A stretch of DNA of 40,441 nt, from IMG/VR virus record IMGVR_UViG_3300031731_000008, positions 1 through 40,441 of that record; one strand, 5' to 3'. This stretch comes from a virus. Made by a program: the position numbers and the translations under genes. The notes beneath the pieces are model-generated. The model searched no databases. It saw nothing but the letters and a program-made list of their open reading frames with translations, and was not told the origin of the DNA. Position 1 is the stretch's first letter. Each line of letters starts with the position of its first letter. Of this stretch, positions 1 to 40,441 are shown in pieces.

Positions 1-127
1 CCGGCGTTGAACGTCACGAGCGCGCCGTCGAGCGCACCGCCGTCCACGCTCTGCGAGATGACGCCCTCGGGCCAGAGGTAGTCGGGCACGCCCTCCACGC
101 GCACGGCGCTGGGATCGGTGGAGCCCG
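1..127. repeat. terminal direct repeat copy 1 (identical to 40315..40441); assembly overlap of a circular/permuted genome
   Basis: ccggcgttgaacgtcacgag...ggtggagcccg read at both ends, 127/127 identical by eye; lies inside a coding frame. Confidence 0.9.
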
Positions 128-15167: not shown

Positions 15168-15913
15168 CGGAGGATGAGCGAGGGCTGGATGAGGGCGCGG
15201 AAGTGTTCCCCGACCTCGGCCATCATCGGGCCCTGCTTGTGCCCGTTCGAGGGGGCTCCGGCGGTGATCTTGAACGGCTGGTACTTCGGCACCGTGGAGA
15301 ACACCTTGCGCAGGTGCTCGGGCATGAGCCCGAACGTCGGCGCGCCCTCCTCCTGCGGCTTCCAGTCGGCCAGGAGTTTCCAGACCGGCGGGTAGGTGGT
15401 GAAGCGTGCCCGGACGAAGACCTGGCGGAAGACCTCCACGTCGCCGTCGTGGACCCCGACCGTCGTGGTGAGCGTGGGGGCCCCTGCCGGGCCCATGGTG
15501 CCCTCGGTGATGGTGACGCGGGAGTACGAGAGCATGTCGCGCGAGACGGTGCTCTGGCGCTCGTTGAGGGTCGCGATCCGGGCGAGCGCGGCGCGTGGAA
15601 TGTAGAACTGCTCGTCCCAGTCGTCGGCTTCATCGTTCTGGGTGTAGCGGACCTCGGCGCGGCGCTCCCAGTCATCGAGCAGGGAGGCATAGCCCCGGAG
15701 GGCCTTCTCGTCCTTCGAGGCCGGTTCCTCCGGGCGCTCCGCGAACGCGAGGTCGTAGTCGCCCACGGTGTAGCGGTCGGTCGCGAGCAGGTGACGCTCA
15801 CGGATCACCGCATGCGTCAGGACGGGCGTCACGTCGTCATTCGAGACGTGGGGGAGGACGGCCGTCGCGGCTTCCTTCGCCGTGAAGAACGGCAGGGATA
15901 TGGTGCGAGTCAC
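15164..15913 (-). CDS. short DnaN (beta sliding clamp)-like protein
   Basis: 249 aa, GTG start. VLTHAVIRERHLLATDRYTV, IPRAALARI, FTTYPPVWKLL and the C-terminal ..ALIQPSLI align by eye to DnaN domain II-III landmarks (ATDGHRL, VPRK, RFPDYRRVL, ..VVMPMRL). Confidence 0.4.
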   Translation of the reverse strand: MTRTISLPFFTAKEAATAVLPHVSNDDVTPVLTHAVIRERHLLATDRYTVGDYDLAFAERPEEPASKDEKALRGYASLLDDWERRAEVRYTQNDEADDWDEQFYIPRAALARIATLNERQSTVSRDMLSYSRVTITEGTMGPAGAPTLTTTVGVHDGDVEVFRQVFVRARFTTYPPVWKLLADWKPQEEGAPTFGLMPEHLRKVFSTVPKYQPFKITAGAPSNGHKQGPMMAEVGEHFRALIQPSLILR

Positions 15914-26750: not shown

Positions 26751-27077
26751 ATGGCCACCATTGCAGACCCCCAGACCATCACCGACGCCGCCGAAGCGAT
26801 CCGGGCCCTGAACCGCCGCCTCCACGAGCGCGATGGTGACGACTACAAGGCCAGCCCCGAGGACCTCGCCGCGGCCGCGCTCAGCGTTATCCCGGACGCG
26901 ATCCTGGAGGAGGCCCCCCTGAACGCCCTCCACCTGGAGCGCCTCGACAACGACTATGCCCACTTCGGAGCCCCCGGCGGCATGTCCCTCGCGCTCCACC
27001 GCGGCGACTGGGTGGAGCGTGGCCGCCCCTCCCGCATCGTCATCTCCGTGCTCGACCTGGAGCCCTTGCGCGTCTGA
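26751..27077 (+). CDS. hypothetical protein (108 aa)
   Basis: track ORF; ATG 26751 preferred over TTG 26745. Confidence 0.6.
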   Translation: MATIADPQTITDAAEAIRALNRRLHERDGDDYKASPEDLAAAALSVIPDAILEEAPLNALHLERLDNDYAHFGAPGGMSLALHRGDWVERGRPSRIVISVLDLEPLRV

Positions 27078-27113
27078 AGCGCTGTGCGCCCGCCTGCGGG
27101 CCTAAAACGAGTC

Positions 27114-27143
27114 AACCCCCCTCCCTTGCCTGGGAGGGGGGTT
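27114..27143. terminator. bidirectional terminator where the early (+) and late/lysis (-) arms converge
   Basis: aacccccctccc / gggaggggggtt, perfect 12-bp stem, 6-nt loop, TTT after it on the plus strand. Confidence 0.75.
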
Positions 27144-27179
27144 TCGTCGTTCCTGCGCCCGCGTGGCGCGGATGGGGGC

Positions 27180-27662
27180 CTATTCCGGCTGGGCATCCCT
27201 GTACTGTTCGCGGGTGAGGTCACTGGGGAGCACGCCGTGACGTGCCGCGGCCGCCTCCACGGAGGCCAGGTCGGAGCGTGCGGCCGCCGTCGTCTGATTC
27301 GACACGGTGAAGATGGCCAGGAGGCTCGACAGCGAGGAGAGGCCGAGCGAGAGCGCAGTCAGGAGCGCGGTGGACACGTCCTCGGAGAACACGCCGAGGA
27401 GGACCAGAGCCGGGGCCACCGTCGCCGCGAGCGCGTAGATCGCACCACGGAGGACGCCCACCGCGTCACGCCAGTTCGCGTTCACGACCGAGAGGCCGGA
27501 GGCGACGAACTGGAGGATCGCGCCGATGATGATGAGCCCCTGCTCGACCTGATCCTGCGAGGCCAGGCCAGCGAGGATCACGAGAGGGGCGAGGGAGCCG
27601 AACCACACCTGGATCGCCTGGCGGCGTTCCGGGGTGAACCATGCGGCGAGTCGAGAGAACAT
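27180..27662 (-). CDS. putative holin / four-TM membrane protein
   Basis: 160 aa; four hydrophobic helices; strong SD (taggaggtcagcATG); last gene of the lysis cassette. Confidence 0.5.
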   Translation of the reverse strand: MFSRLAAWFTPERRQAIQVWFGSLAPLVILAGLASQDQVEQGLIIIGAILQFVASGLSVVNANWRDAVGVLRGAIYALAATVAPALVLLGVFSEDVSTALLTALSLGLSSLSSLLAIFTVSNQTTAAARSDLASVEAAAARHGVLPSDLTREQYRDAQPE

Positions 27663-27671
27663 GCTGACCTC

Positions 27672-28400
27672 CTACGGGGTCGGTGTCGGTGTTGGGGTGA
27701 GCGTGCAGAGGTACGCAGGCTGGGACGTAGGGACGCCCGTTTCCGGGTCCTCCACGAGCACGGTTGTCGCGGTGCCAGTGTAGCCGTCAGGGCATGCGGG
27801 GCCAGCGGGACCTTGCGGGCCGGTAGCGCCCGTCTGACCGGTGGGGCCCTGAGGACCTGCGGGGCCTGCCGAGCCCTGCTCGCCGTCCTGCCCGTCCTTC
27901 CCATCCGCTCCGGGCTCACCAGGAGCGCCATCGACGCCGGGCGCACCGGGGGCCCCTGGGTCGCCGGGCTCGCCATCGTCGCCGGGGGTGCCGGGCTCAC
28001 CTGCGGGGCCGGAGGGGCCGCGCTCCGGGATGAGTACCTCCGGGTCGGTGCCGTCCGGGTCCTCACCGAGCGCGAGCAGTTGGTCGTAGAGTTCCTGCGC
28101 GTTCGCCTGGGATGCCACGAGGTCATCGGTGAGTTCGGAGATGGTGAGGCGCTGTTCCTCCACGACCGAATTCGAGCGGGCGTTCCGGTCCACGAGGTTC
28201 ACCAGGAACCACGCGCCGAGCCCGAGGAGGAGCATCACGAGGATCGCCGTCGTGACGGTGAACACCCAGCCGAGACGCTTCGGAGGCTCCTCGATGGGGG
28301 GCAGGACTATCGCCCCGGCCGCCGTCTGCGATTCGCGCATCTCCTGGAGAATCTCCGCGGGGTCGCGGGGCTCCAGATCGGCGTTCTGGTCATCGTTCAC
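27672..28400 (-). CDS. membrane-anchored collagen-like repeat protein (242 aa)
   Basis: GTG 28400 (GTGA overlap, SD ggaggcacaca). N-terminal [30 protein letters not shown], a coiled-coil stretch, 25 uninterrupted G-X-Y triplets, and a C-term with 2 Cys and a (TP)5 tail. Confidence 0.7.
27795..28019 (-). repeat. collagen-like (GXY)25 coding repeat
   Basis: [75 protein letters not shown]. Confidence 0.85.
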
Positions 28401-28771
28401 TGTGTGCCTCCAAGGCCAGCCTGAGCGGCAAGGATACCCACGACTATCGCCGCGGCGGGAGACGCGAAGATGAGGAGCCATTGCCACTGAGTCGCGCGGC
28501 GCACCTTCTCGCGCTCGTTCCGCTCTGCGATCTGAGCCTGAAGGGCCGTAGTCTCGGCCGCCACTCGCGCCTGGTGCTCGGCGGCGAGGTCCTTCTGGAG
28601 CGTCGAGATTTCACGGCCCTGCCCCTCCAGGCGTCCATCCACGCGGCGGCGCTCATCGGAGAACGTGTCGCGGGTCACGAGGTTATCGAACCGCTGGTTC
28701 CACTCGACACGCATCTGCGAGAGGTCCTCGCGGAGGATCTGAAACTGGGAGGGGGTCATGCCGTCCGTCAC
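28397..28771 (-). CDS. tail-anchored coiled-coil membrane protein (lysis-cassette component)
   Basis: 124 aa from GTG 28771 (AGGAG 9 nt upstream), or 120 aa from ATG 28759; helical charged N-domain; C-terminal [23 protein letters not shown]. Confidence 0.55.
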
Positions 28772-28826
28772 GGTGTGAAACTCCTGGGGATGAAGTGAGG
28801 GAGGGCCGCCGGGTGAGCCCGCGAAG

Positions 28827-28832
28827 ACTCTA
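28827..28832 (-). promoter_or_regulatory. -10-like GGGTAGAGT between the endolysin and the membrane-protein genes
   Basis: minus gccgggTAGAGTcttcgcggg in the 79-nt gap. Confidence 0.3.
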
Positions 28833-28850
28833 CCCGGCGACCCTCTCGGC

Positions 28851-29654
28851 TCACGACTTGATCTGCGGCACGTCCTCGTCGGCAATGTCAACGAAGACCT
28901 TGCCCATCGCGGCGGCACGCGCGGCGACCGTGGCCTTGATCGCGTCGTAGTGGCCACGGGTCACGGGACCGGATGCCTCCAGGCCGAAGCCCTTCGCCAC
29001 ACCGTTCGCGTAGGCCACGCTGAACCAGCCGAAGGGGGAGAACGTCCCCGCCTCGAAGTCAACGATCGCGCCCGACCGCTTCGAGTCGGACTTGTCGTCG
29101 GTGTGAATGACTCCTGTGGACATGTTGCGCTTCTTTCTCTTAGGGTTTGCCGGGGTGGAGGTTCCGCCCCCAGCGGGCTTGCCAGGGACGGCGTTGAAGA
29201 TGTTCAGCACGTCGTAGTGCCATGCCTCACCGAAGCCGAAGCCAGAGGCGACGAGCCCGTACTTCCAGGCGTTCGCCCGGAGCCAGTTCGAGCGGGCCGA
29301 GCCCATCGTCGCGATCCCGCCATCCGAGCCGGTGTCGTAGAGGTCCACGGCCGCCTTCGAGCCCTGAATCTCATGGTTCGACGTGCCCGGCACGGCGACC
29401 GTACCAGCCGACGAGATGCGATACCACAGGCGGCCGTTCCACCAGCGGGTGTCATAGACGCGGCGACCGTTCACGTCCCCGGCGGTGACGTACCGTTCCA
29501 GGAAGATGCGCTTCTGGTCCTCGTAGGTGCGGATCGCGGAACGGACCCTCACCCAGACGCCGAACAGGCTGTGCATGTCGGCGCTCAGCCGGTCGATGCA
29601 GTAGGCCATCCACGGGGTGACGCGCTGGCCGTCGCGCTCAACGAACGTGACCAT
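28851..29654 (-). CDS. endolysin, peptidase M15 (VanY / D-Ala-D-Ala carboxypeptidase-like) with C-terminal domain
   Basis: 267 aa; RSAIRTYEDQKRIF, GTSNHEIQGSKAAVDL and GEAWHYD fit LAS/M15 metallopeptidase motifs; basic linker KRKKR, then a second domain. Confidence 0.75.
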   Translation of the reverse strand: MVTFVERDGQRVTPWMAYCIDRLSADMHSLFGVWVRVRSAIRTYEDQKRIFLERYVTAGDVNGRRVYDTRWWNGRLWYRISSAGTVAVPGTSNHEIQGSKAAVDLYDTGSDGGIATMGSARSNWLRANAWKYGLVASGFGFGEAWHYDVLNIFNAVPGKPAGGGTSTPANPKRKKRNMSTGVIHTDDKSDSKRSGAIVDFEAGTFSPFGWFSVAYANGVAKGFGLEASGPVTRGHYDAIKATVAARAAAMGKVFVDIADEDVPQIKS

Positions 29655-29902
29655 CAGGCACCGTCCTCGCCGCGCACGTCATCGCCGTCCGAGACATAGC
29701 ATGTCGCGTCGAGAGGGACGCCCGGCACGAGGACCACCTGGCCGTCGTCTCCGAGCCCCCAGGCGTCCGCGATGCCATCCCCATCAATGTCCACGTCGAG
29801 CGGCAGGAGAGGCCGCTCAGCGCCCGCACGCGCCTGGTCCTCCAGGAGCCCGCGGATCACCGCCTCGTCCTCCTCGGTGAGCGTGTTCTCGTCATTCGCC
29901 AT
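29654..29902 (-). CDS. hypothetical acidic protein (82 aa)
   Basis: ATG 29902 (MANDENTLTEEDEAV..); 1-nt overlap with the endolysin start. Confidence 0.5.
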   Translation of the reverse strand: MANDENTLTEEDEAVIRGLLEDQARAGAERPLLPLDVDIDGDGIADAWGLGDDGQVVLVPGVPLDATCYVSDGDDVRGEDGA

Positions 29903-30077
29903 CGCTGGCCTCCTCGATCTGTTCGACTTCGTAGGTGCCGTCCTTCCACGGGCCGCGGACCATGCCGCGCGCGCGCTTCTCGGCGTTCTCCGGGGTGCGC
30001 GCACGGACGCGCATCTCCGTGCCCGAGTTGCCGCTCGGGCTCGTGATCTTCACCCGGTAGTCGTGAATGTCAGACAT
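29892..30077 (-). CDS. hypothetical protein (61 aa)
   Basis: ATG 30077 (MSDIHDYRVKITSPSG..), 8-nt overlap with the upstream stop. Confidence 0.5.
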   Translation of the reverse strand: MSDIHDYRVKITSPSGNSGTEMRVRARTPENAEKRARGMVRGPWKDGTYEVEQIEEASDGE

Positions 30078-30891
30078 CGATGGGCTCCTCCCATGCTGTG
30101 CCGGTGCTGATCTGGGGACCGGCCTTGACCCAGGCCGAGCCATCCGATACCTGCGGCCCGGCCCCGATCCAGTTCGTGCCGTCCGAGACGAAGACTCCCG
30201 CCTCCGTCTCCATCATCGTGAACGCCGACCAGGGGCCATAGTCGATCCCGTTCTTCGCCCGATAGCGGACTCGGTACTTCGTGGAGGGGGAGAGTTCGAC
30301 CTTCCCGGCCGTGGTCTGGTTTGAGGAGCCCGACTGCCATCCGCCCACCACGTCATCCGGCCCGGCGACCTCGTCATAGACGAAAATGTCGTAGGTGATG
30401 ATGGCGGACCCGCCGTTGTCGGACGGTGCCGTGATCTTGAACGCGATTGAGTCCGGCTCCGCGCTGACGAACGTCGGCGCGGCTGGCTGAGACGGCGGCT
30501 TGGGGATGCGGGGGGCGCTCCCAGGGTCCGCGTAGGCCGTGCCGGAGCCGATCCCATCGTGGACGTTCCCGTTGATGGAGAACGCCATGTTCTGCTGATC
30601 GATGAGGTAGCCCTGGGCGTTGTGCGGCTTCGTGAAGTACCCCGAGCGGAGCACGATGTACGAGTCGTAGGCGTTCCCCGAGGGGACGGTGAACGTGCCG
30701 CTCGCGGACGCGAATCCGCCGACCGACCAGTAGCAGGTGCCGTTCGTCCACTGGCCGCCACCGTTGCCGTAATAGCGAATCTCCCAGTACCACGTGGAGT
30801 AATTCCCCGCCTGGTTGTACGACACGTAATAGACGTTGCCGTAGACCTCACACGGCCCGTAGCCGGAGAGTGGAGCGCGTGCCGATCCCAT
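30070..30891 (-). CDS. minor tail protein / receptor-binding candidate with FN3-like segment
   Basis: 273 aa; Y/W/G-rich beta N-domain; PSQPAAPTFVSAEPDSIAFKITAPSDNGGSAIITYDI..YRVRYRAKN resembles fibronectin type III. Confidence 0.45.
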   Translation of the reverse strand: MGSARAPLSGYGPCEVYGNVYYVSYNQAGNYSTWYWEIRYYGNGGGQWTNGTCYWSVGGFASASGTFTVPSGNAYDSYIVLRSGYFTKPHNAQGYLIDQQNMAFSINGNVHDGIGSGTAYADPGSAPRIPKPPSQPAAPTFVSAEPDSIAFKITAPSDNGGSAIITYDIFVYDEVAGPDDVVGGWQSGSSNQTTAGKVELSPSTKYRVRYRAKNGIDYGPWSAFTMMETEAGVFVSDGTNWIGAGPQVSDGSAWVKAGPQISTGTAWEEPIDV

Positions 30892-40249: not shown

Positions 40250-40441
40250 GGGACGCCCCCCACAGGAGCATGCCCTCGACGTACTCGCCCGTGATGCCGG
40301 TGATGACGAGCGTCCCGGCGTTGAACGTCACGAGCGCGCCGTCGAGCGCACCGCCGTCCACGCTCTGCGAGATGACGCCCTCGGGCCAGAGGTAGTCGGG
40401 CACGCCCTCCACGCGCACGGCGCTGGGATCGGTGGAGCCCG
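40242..40441 (-). CDS. 3' end of the junction-spanning adaptor-like gene (same gene as 1..692)
   Basis: frame ..TLVITGITGEYVEGMLLWGASRG-TGA (stop 40244..40242); 40315..40441 duplicates 1..127. Confidence 0.6.
   Translation of the reverse strand, partial: GSTDPSAVRVEGVPDYLWPEGVISQSVDGGALDGALVTFNAGTLVITGITGEYVEGMLLWGASRG
40315..40441. repeat. terminal direct repeat copy 2
   Basis: identical to 1..127. Confidence 0.9.

Follow-up and report, generated by a model that had tools for sequence, protein, structure and literature searches.

A membrane-anchored collagen-like protein and its coiled-coil partner as a conserved two-gene module of Microbacterium phage lysis cassettes

[quoted passage not shown] Single-TM accessory lysis proteins do have precedents in phages of Gram-positive hosts: XhlA and SPP1 gp24.1, which have a C-terminal transmembrane (TM) segment and are needed along with a 2-TM holin to kill and lyse Bacillus (PMC6316719), and LysF1b, a single-TM protein of F1 mycobacteriophages whose deletion causes a severe lysis defect (PMC13056207). 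Here we analyze two overlapping genes, termed A and B, in IMG/VR virus record IMGVR_UViG_3300031731_000008, a complete Microbacterium phage genome of 40,441 nucleotides (nt) and 68.5% GC presented in reverse orientation (the window, below). Both genes lie between the endolysin and the holin candidate of the lysis cassette. B encodes a collagen-like protein of 242 amino acids (aa) with a predicted membrane anchor, and A encodes a 124-aa coiled-coil protein with a TM segment of its own. Judged from sequence, B is a real feature, conserved well beyond the window genome and at present mis-annotated or unannotated; our literature searches turned up no account of a collagen-like protein that is anchored in the membrane and encoded in the lysis cassette of an actinobacteriophage. 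We propose, as a reading that we consider evenly balanced between right and wrong, that A and B constitute an accessory lysis module at the membrane–wall interface for which B would supply a wall-threading trimeric stalk.

The B open reading frame (ORF) comprises 729 nt, running from a GTG start codon (28400–28398) to a TAG stop codon (27674–27672), and its product divides into successive segments (Table 1). In a model of the monomer calculated with AlphaFold2 (AF2) from a 44-sequence alignment, the mean predicted local distance difference test score (pLDDT) is 77.7. The acidic N-terminal segment contains a short modeled helix (aa 14–24) and an invariant PGxIV motif (G29, V32), and ends in K41 and R42 at the start of the TM helix, for which the best 19-aa Kyte–Doolittle (KD) window reaches 2.46 at aa 52. 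The TM helix and the heptad segment that follows it are modeled as one continuous helix (aa 43–110, pLDDT 87–98, with values up to 98 in the TM part). The heptad segment opens with a conserved NLVDRNA motif directly past the membrane, contains a second conserved motif of 12 residues and holds polar residues N73, S76, Q83 and S97 in its core; it covers ~43 aa (aa 69–111), not the ~55 aa given in the initial annotation of this DNA, which had been made from the sequence alone. Beyond the collagen-like segment, the predicted tip is a β-hairpin whose strands (aa 207–217 and 224–234, pLDDT ~91) are flanked by the two Cys residues.

The collagen-like segment was placed exactly by the initial annotation, as 25 uninterrupted triplets in a membrane protein, and we find it on the minus strand with a Pfam Collagen (PF01391) match of 57.8 bits (E = 9e-16, gathering cut-off 27.2). 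It contains 21% Pro, carries a net charge of –10 and is drawn by AF2 as an extended chain (pLDDT 53–79). This stretch is the sole G-X-Y run of more than six triplets in the six frames of the window and its Gly columns are near-invariant across 44 homologues, which argues that the run is selected and is not an artefact of high GC content. The one further G-X-Y run in the window has six triplets (GAPGGTGLEGREGPPGLC) and lies at 15687–15740 in a minus-strand frame. NCBIfam matches of B (Scl1/Scl2, Lcl) run through the GXY region. Foldseek searches of the PDB with the B model returned nothing below an E-value of 2, comparison of a profile of the B N-terminal region with PDB sequences gave chance coiled-coil or TM matches only (best E = 0.002), and a tblastn search of the window with the 46-aa tip found no match except gene B itself.

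The membrane topology of both proteins is predicted from charge. Across 65 homologues, Lys and Arg residues flanking the B TM helix number 155 on the N-terminal side and 98 on the C-terminal side, with an N-terminal excess in 34 sequences and a C-terminal excess in 3; for the TM segment of A, the corresponding counts in 32 sequences are 135 and 3. From this positive-inside bias, we infer that B is a type-II single-pass protein with its N-terminus inside and its C-terminus outside, and that A is tail-anchored with its coiled coil wholly in the cytoplasm. For B, the bias and the KD value thus bear out, at the level of prediction, the single strong TM helix, cytoplasmic N-terminal segment and type-II orientation suggested initially. 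The invariant Cys pair of the B ectodomain would fit an oxidizing, extracytoplasmic site, and B probably trimerizes and probably contains a Cys203–Cys232 disulfide. By standard rises per residue, the heptad helix would extend ~6 nm from the membrane and the 16-aa linker would join it to 21 nm of triple helix, capped by a tip of 3–4 nm. Such a molecule would be a strongly acidic rod ~30 nm long and roughly 1.5–2 nm thick. The porosity of peptidoglycan should allow passage of a rod of ~1.5–2 nm thickness, and B could be narrow enough to thread peptidoglycan pores toward the cell surface.

As judged by synteny, A and B are an obligate pair, conserved and portable as a two-gene unit within the lysis cassette. 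The order endolysin–A–B–multi-TM protein recurs at ~30 independent loci, and at every related Microbacterium-type locus examined in the synteny survey that the initial annotation had called for, A and B stand between endolysin and holin. The isolates with this order are Gingerbug, DelaGarza and Lesiram, Goodman and Rasovi of cluster EJ, and the singleton Burro; it is also present in the 95-kb phages Leaf and Dewdrop, in the prophage-derived vB_MoxS-R1, in 13 IMG/VR or genome loci and in a prophage of the 3.36-Mb Microbacterium plantarum chromosome. Searched by tblastn against 50,697 phage records, B matches 17 Microbacterium phages, and A matches the same records plus Leaf and Dewdrop. A large protein database yielded 32 relatives of A and 66 of B, and the bacterial genomes matched were from Microbacterium only. 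When metagenomic contigs were picked through A, a Pfam-Collagen protein was encoded directly downstream in all eight of eight, and a gene for a small TM protein came next. Exhaustive searching with an A profile returned 92 cluster representatives among 1.84 billion; a C-terminal TM segment is present in 86 of the 89 newly returned representatives, and remote homologues (30–40% identity) again have a B-like protein encoded next downstream.

The A protein itself combines a highly conserved N-terminal motif, QFQILRED...LVTR(D/E)xFxDE(R/Q)RRVD, with a long coiled coil, a WQW sequence and the C-terminal TM segment, and is modeled by AF2 as one helix (aa 7–117). It has no match in Pfam, PHROGs or NCBIfam, its profile gave 0 matches among PDB sequences and its model found no match in BFVD by Foldseek.

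What accompanies the module varies. The endolysins paired with A and B are of at least three types (VanY/M15, M23 and L-Ala-D-Glu peptidase), and the downstream TM proteins, with two to four TM segments and 80–165 aa, are mostly just 12–19% identical to the window holin; the figure rises to 43–47% in two loci (L008 and L011) and to 81–85% in Gingerbug, DelaGarza and L014. In occurring with such varied endolysin and holin partners, A and B resemble independent third lysis functions, such as spanins in Gram-negative phages and LysB in mycobacteriophages, and differ from a cognate antiholin. A co-evolution test that correlated A–B with A–holin identity was too weak once two close relatives were taken out.

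Within the B family, the conserved parts are the PGxIV motif, the TM helix, NLVDRNA, the helix motif, the acidic Pro linker and a collagen segment of net negative charge (median –6.9 per 100 aa, with 21% Pro), and no full-length member lacks the terminal Cys pair. A hydrophobic helix of 20–25 residues occurs in all 65 Microbacterium-type members, in which the top hydrophobic window (KD 1.98–3.12) falls inside the first ~80 residues, and in the Arthrobacter and PA6 proteins inspected (see below). Relative to its Gingerbug and DelaGarza counterparts, window B is 85–92% identical in the TM helix, 70–81% in the heptad helix, 70–75% in the tip and 59–64% in the collagen segment. Triplet number ranges from 6 (member P0002) to 37 (P0060) in 66 members, with a median of 24 and most at 20–29. 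Tips of at least three sequence types are found on one conserved anchor, and that of the window protein is type 1. Many members (Leaf gp85 at L007:4379–5284, P0065–P0096, L035) have one or two short non-GXY inserts with C-x5-C, examples being YCALNGFC and YCAGTTC; these inserts may be extra disulfide staples or kinks. Collagen is missing altogether from the B-like proteins encoded next to remote A homologues on two IMG/VR contigs (L032:1120–1491 and L033:4225–4596), in which a TM segment, a short helix and a Cys tip are joined directly; at these loci, a gene for a 2-TM protein lies ahead of A, and a putative amidase-like gene comes after.

In the window, the neighbors of B named in the initial annotation, an M15 endolysin, a coiled-coil TM protein and a four-TM holin candidate, were assigned correctly. 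The endolysin and A are separated by 79 nt. As also noted initially, the GTG start of B shares bases with the TGA stop of A in a GTGA overlap suited to translational coupling, and a GGAGG lies 9–13 nt 5′ of the B start. The holin start is 9 nt past the B stop, and the GGAGG of the holin overlaps the B stop codon (TAGGAGGTCAGCATG). An intrinsic terminator is predicted to close the late/lysis operon; no second terminator-like site occurs across positions 26900–30200, and none within the cassette. Given the GTGA overlap, the overlapping Shine–Dalgarno sequence and the single terminator, B is probably made late, at the end of the late operon, and coupled to both A and the holin.

Table 1 Lysis-cassette features and predicted segments of the B protein in the window
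Feature	Positions	Strand	Basis
Endolysin, VanY/M15-type peptidase N-terminal domain, without signal peptide	28851..29654	minus	Pfam VanY, E = 3.4e-6
Gene A, 124-aa coiled-coil partner with predicted C-terminal TM	28397..28771	minus	Sequence, AF2, Lys/Arg flanks, family
Gene B, 242-aa predicted membrane-anchored collagen-like protein	27672..28400	minus	ORF, Pfam Collagen, 66 family members
B aa 1–42, acidic N-terminus, net charge –6	28275..28400	minus	Charge count, alignment, AF2
B aa 43–68, predicted TM helix (signal anchor, N-in)	28197..28274	minus	KD, Lys/Arg flanks, AF2
B aa 69–111, heptad helix continuous with TM, predicted extracytoplasmic	28068..28196	minus	Alignments, AF2, heptad register from sequence
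B aa 112–127, acidic Pro-containing linker; P115 and P120 invariant	28020..28067	minus	Alignment, charge
B aa 128–202, 25 unbroken G-X-Y triplets	27795..28019	minus	Sequence, Pfam
B aa 203–242, predicted Cys203/Cys232-bounded β-hairpin tip, then (TP)n tail	27675..27794	minus	AF2, Cys pair across family
Holin candidate, 160 aa, four TMs	27180..27662	minus	PHROG holin phrog_6116, E = 6.9e-5; Gingerbug holin annotation
Intrinsic terminator, 12-bp stem with 9 GC pairs, T-run	27114..27143	minus	Directly after holin

The closest isolates to the window phage are the Microbacterium foliorum phages Gingerbug, DelaGarza and Lesiram, at ~80–82% nucleotide identity across the lysis region, and the counterparts of the window endolysin are annotated as endolysins in Gingerbug and DelaGarza. 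Protein identities to Gingerbug and DelaGarza are 39–44% for the minor tail protein, 51–52% for the endolysin, 90–94% for A, 68–75% for B and 81–84% for the holin. A mosaic break inside the cassette separates 28772–29654 from 27180–28771, and the 79-nt gap between the endolysin and A may be a recombination joint. The ends of the window (1–127 and 40315–40441) are an exact 127-bp direct repeat, most simply the assembler overlap of a circular or circularly permuted genome with a unique length of ~40,314 bp. In the M. plantarum prophage (CP141117), a 555-aa protein with Mtd_N and GDSL/SGNH-lipase domains is encoded directly after the holin-like gene (L028:11023–12690), and next come host-like genes for an O-antigen polymerase, a GDSL lipase and an acyltransferase; this stretch may be a cargo region that modifies wall polymers.

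Proteins with a similar order of parts are encoded by phages of two further host genera. In Foldseek searches of BFVD, the B model matched only proteins annotated as ‘minor tail’, from Appa, a Microbacterium phage (E = 1e-5), and from Kitkat, an Arthrobacter phage. A tblastn search with P0069, a member with a type-2 tip, matched the C-terminal ends of proteins labeled ‘minor tail’ or ‘tail fiber’ in 15 Arthrobacter phage records at 52–71% identity. Among these Arthrobacter TM-collagen proteins are ArV2 gp20, Cole gp22, Faja gp23, Kukla gp21 and Pitbull gp21, all of which have an N-terminal TM segment (KD 2.0–3.0), a helical segment, 27–38 triplets and a Cys tip; at these loci, a gene for a 71–108-aa protein with an N-terminal TM segment and a charged helix precedes the TM-collagen gene, and the endolysin and holin genes follow it. 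Extension of the family through the anchor region of ArV2 gp20 found Arthrobacter phages alone. In phage PA6 of Cutibacterium acnes, gp19 (L041:1268–2020) runs from a TM segment through a helix with Cys and 42 triplets to a Cys-rich tip; the gene before it encodes gp18 (L041:1032–1271), a small protein with hydrophobic and charged parts, and the endolysin (gp20) and holin (gp21) genes come after it. As annotated, PA6 gp19 opens straight with its TM segment; an in-frame TTG is found at 1274 or 1283, preceded by GGTGGAGGTGAG. The gp19 start has probably been mis-called, as the upstream TTG would add a cytoplasmic segment, KRQRRNFEK.

How could A and B contribute to lysis? We propose that the 42-aa N-terminus of B resides in the cytoplasm, that one TM helix crosses the membrane and that the remainder of the protein lies outside it. 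B would trimerize through the helix that continues the TM segment and through the 25-triplet collagen helix, and the disulfide-bounded hairpin would cap the resulting rod. Together, A and B would form a transmembrane complex at the membrane–wall interface that helps or times holin-dependent lysis, with A acting as a co-holin like XhlA or gp24.1 and B linking the complex to the wall. Within this reading, we favor co-holin activity or the timing of lysis over direct disruption of the wall or of an outer layer. The architecture of the two sequences, their conservation, their synteny and the structure of their operon are established; a role of A and B in lysis, and any mechanism for it, is speculative.

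Several observations weigh against this proposal. First, comparison of A with SPP1 gp24.1 by hhalign gives a probability of 0.2, and the XhlA family model PF10779 finds 0 of 33 close members of the A family and 1 of 10 remote members (E = 0.026); neither result supports homology between A and XhlA. Second, the stalk ranges from 0 triplets (L032 and L033) to 42 (PA6 gp19) among related proteins. A fixed, wall-spanning length therefore seems not to be essential, which argues against a strict ruler and weakens the initial suggestion of a ~20-nm rod sized to span the wall, even with most relatives at 20–29 triplets. Third, many Microbacterium phage clusters do not carry the A–B module, which is therefore accessory. 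Finally, the TM-collagen gene of Arthrobacter and Cutibacterium phages closes the tail block, ahead of the endolysin gene, and the holin can have virion genes behind it, making gene position by itself ambiguous in both groups; the published account of the ArV2 virion, discussed below, is also inconsistent in one sentence that names gp20 among the detected tail proteins.

The alternative that survives best, itself unlikely, is that B is a surface-display device, whose stalk would bring the tip through the wall to the surface late in infection. There, the tip would block superinfection, mask receptors and so spare progeny from loss on debris, or sense a superinfecting phage, relaying a signal of the lysis-inhibition type via the TM helix to A. 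A long, thin, acidic rod with a distal tip of at least three interchangeable types on a conserved anchor would be consistent with display, one tip type is common to Microbacterium and Arthrobacter phages, and gp19 is the most variable ‘structural’ gene in P. acnes phages. Moreover, the N-in/C-out arrangement of B with a cytoplasmic partner resembles that of T4 T, RI and RIII. However, B is among the last genes of the late operon, which would be late for exclusion in a lytic phage, and a membrane-anchored protein would be unable to mask abundant wall receptors. Tip identity of 56–71% across host genera speaks against host-specific receptor binding, the variability falls mostly in collagen repeats under low constraint, and the defense and exclusion families of PADLOC gave no match.

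We consider it improbable that B is a collagen-like tail fiber or minor tail protein of the virion, in which the hydrophobic N-terminus would serve baseplate attachment or assembly. GenBank records place its relatives in Rasovi, Htur, Leaf, Appa, Kitkat, ArV2, Cole, Faja and PA6 among the minor tail or tail fiber proteins, and the PHROG matches of B are all to tail-fiber or collagen-like minor tail families; those matches, however, run through the GXY region alone, and the tail annotations of B relatives are all inferred from GXY repeats. In Arthrobacter and Cutibacterium phages, the gene does come straight after the tail genes, but in Microbacterium phages B sits past the endolysin, coupled to the holin and outside the tail block, at all loci. 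A virion fiber would also leave unexplained a hydrophobic segment (KD ~2.0–3.1) that is kept with a positive-inside bias across three host genera and the constant pairing of B with a second single-pass membrane protein. Within the window phage, the B tip has no similarity to other proteins and the genome contains no second long collagen run. Mycobacteriophage L5 gp6, considered as a possible virion-proven collagen-like relative encoded beside a lysis cassette, has no GXY repeats and no TM segment.

Published work on relatives of B bears on the same question. Papers on C. acnes phages take gp19 to be a tail fiber and the likely determinant of host range, inferring this from its glycine repeats and from its variability (in P. 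acnes phages, 67–77% identity for gp19 versus 90–99% for other ‘structural’ genes); in the literature that we found on PA6-type gp19, there is no direct evidence of a host-range fiber role. The virion proteome of ArV2 comprises 14 proteins identified by mass spectrometry, gp15–18, gp23 and gp24 among them, with coverage of 35–95%; gp20 is absent from that table and is described as ‘not detectable by mass spectrometry’. A virion-fiber identity, which the initial annotation had named as the outcome that would overturn its reading, is weakened by this absence, with the contrary sentence in the ArV2 paper leaving the point less than firm. In ArV2 (L029) and Cole (L030), the small TM gene, the TM-collagen gene, the endolysin and the holin lie between two sets of tail or virion genes; of the genes after the holin, those for ArV2 gp23 and gp24 encode proteins detected by mass spectrometry, and those for Cole gp25 and gp26 bear minor tail annotations.

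An equally small chance attaches to B being itself the lethal hole-former, that is, a class-III-like holin resembling T4 T, or a specific antiholin of the multi-TM protein encoded downstream. T4 T is a class III holin with a short cytoplasmic N-terminus, one TM segment and a large, disulfide-containing ectodomain. The predicted topology of B, with a single TM helix, the N-terminus inside and a large C-terminal ectodomain, fits this class, and gene B immediately precedes the holin gene, with which it is coupled. Nevertheless, a canonical holin candidate is always present besides B, B has no sequence similarity to any holin family in Pfam or PHROGs, and the downstream TM proteins of most loci are unrelated to one another, which would be atypical for the targets of a cognate antiholin.

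The GenBank label ‘lysin B’ on relatives of B is, on the evidence of their domain content, an annotation error: no hydrolase domain was detected in Pfam, PHROGs or NCBIfam, and the sequence is fully accounted for by TM segment, helix, collagen and hairpin. A survey of Microbacterium phages likewise reports that none of them has a lysin B (PMC7302621). The label is attached to Goodman gp30 (L003:4019–4726) and vB_MoxS-R1 gp65 (L031:3402–4037), and to further TM-collagen proteins in Johann, TurboVicky, Zanella, Typher, Jera, PermaG and SBlackberry.

The presence of A and B in the lysis cassettes of Microbacterium phages suggests an unrecognized step or control point at the membrane–wall interface. 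More broadly, A/B modules could represent a new kind of late-acting phage membrane apparatus in Actinobacteria that have no mycolic acids: an ‘inside-out’ trimeric collagen fiber, rooted in the cytoplasmic membrane and passing out through the peptidoglycan, would work with its cytoplasmic coiled-coil partner as a third lysis function beside holin and endolysin, with the ‘collagen-like minor tail proteins’ of C. acnes, Arthrobacter and Microbacterium phages being non-virion, wall-threading lysis proteins; we advance this wider claim tentatively and judge the balance to tilt somewhat against it. If it were true, gp19 of PA6 and P100D, long taken as a host-range fiber, would not be a virion protein. 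The point has practical weight, as C. acnes phages are candidates for acne therapy and gp19 is widely treated as the host-range determinant by inference alone. In dozens of GenBank records, a B-type protein is named ‘lysin B’, ‘tail fiber’ or ‘minor tail protein’. The initial annotation had the gene and the cassette right; it overlooked the pairing with A, the wider family and these database mislabels. The hosts are genetically tractable, with M. foliorum, the SEA-PHAGES phages and BRED/CRISPY-BRED recombineering all available.

Compared with described lysis proteins, A is in topology most like XhlA of PBSX and gp24.1 of SPP1, likewise small proteins of ~90–125 aa in which a cytoplasmic coiled coil leads to a C-terminal TM segment, encoded in Gram-positive phages by genes that adjoin an endolysin and a canonical multi-TM holin. 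XhlA systems differ from A and B in having no third component with a collagen stalk, and their proteins have no detectable homology to A. B, in turn, resembles the i-spanin Rz of phage λ. Both are type-II, N-in/C-out proteins of the lysis cassette with an extended ectodomain and Cys residues outside the membrane, both are coupled to a small partner gene, and both are mosaic relative to the type of holin or endolysin; by prediction, B has the i-spanin layout of an N-terminal TM segment, N-in/C-out topology and a coiled-coil ectodomain. In contrast to spanin systems, however, the Microbacterium host is Gram-positive and has no outer membrane, A is a tail-anchored cytoplasmic protein without an N-terminal signal or lipobox, and the stalk of B is a predicted collagen triple helix where that of Rz is a dimeric coiled coil. 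Neither B nor A matches a spanin family in Pfam, PHROGs or NCBIfam. Given the lack of a lipoprotein partner, of an outer membrane and of homology, A and B are not members of the spanins. Lysin B, a mycolylarabinogalactan esterase with a cutinase-like α/β-hydrolase domain and a Ser-Asp-His triad, shares with B only the slot after ‘lysin A’ in actinobacteriophage cassettes; B has neither a hydrolase domain nor a catalytic triad, and its hosts lack mycolic acids.

Among collagen-like proteins, PA6 and P100D gp19, ArV2 gp20, Cole gp22 and Faja gp23 share with B the order of parts, with 27–42 triplets and a Cys-containing tip, and as with B, their genes are preceded by one for a small single-pass partner with a charged cytoplasmic helix and adjoin those for endolysin and holin. 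The Arthrobacter tips match the type-2 tips of Microbacterium-phage B proteins, whereas the tip of window B is type 1. Unlike B, these Cutibacterium and Arthrobacter proteins are encoded 5′ of the endolysin, have partners with an N-terminal TM segment and contain an anchor and helix that cannot be aligned with those of B. The bacterial Scl1 and Scl2 proteins have a C-terminal LPXTG anchor and a distal globular head, and their homology to B is limited to GXY. The class A scavenger receptor SR-A is a trimeric type-II protein composed of a cytoplasmic tail, a signal-anchor TM segment, a coiled coil, a collagen segment and a Cys domain. This domain order is that of B, and the likeness of B to SR-A, MARCO and collagens XIII and XVII is purely convergent. 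B would thus be a rare type-II membrane collagen of a prokaryotic virus, with a layout converging on that of animal scavenger receptors.

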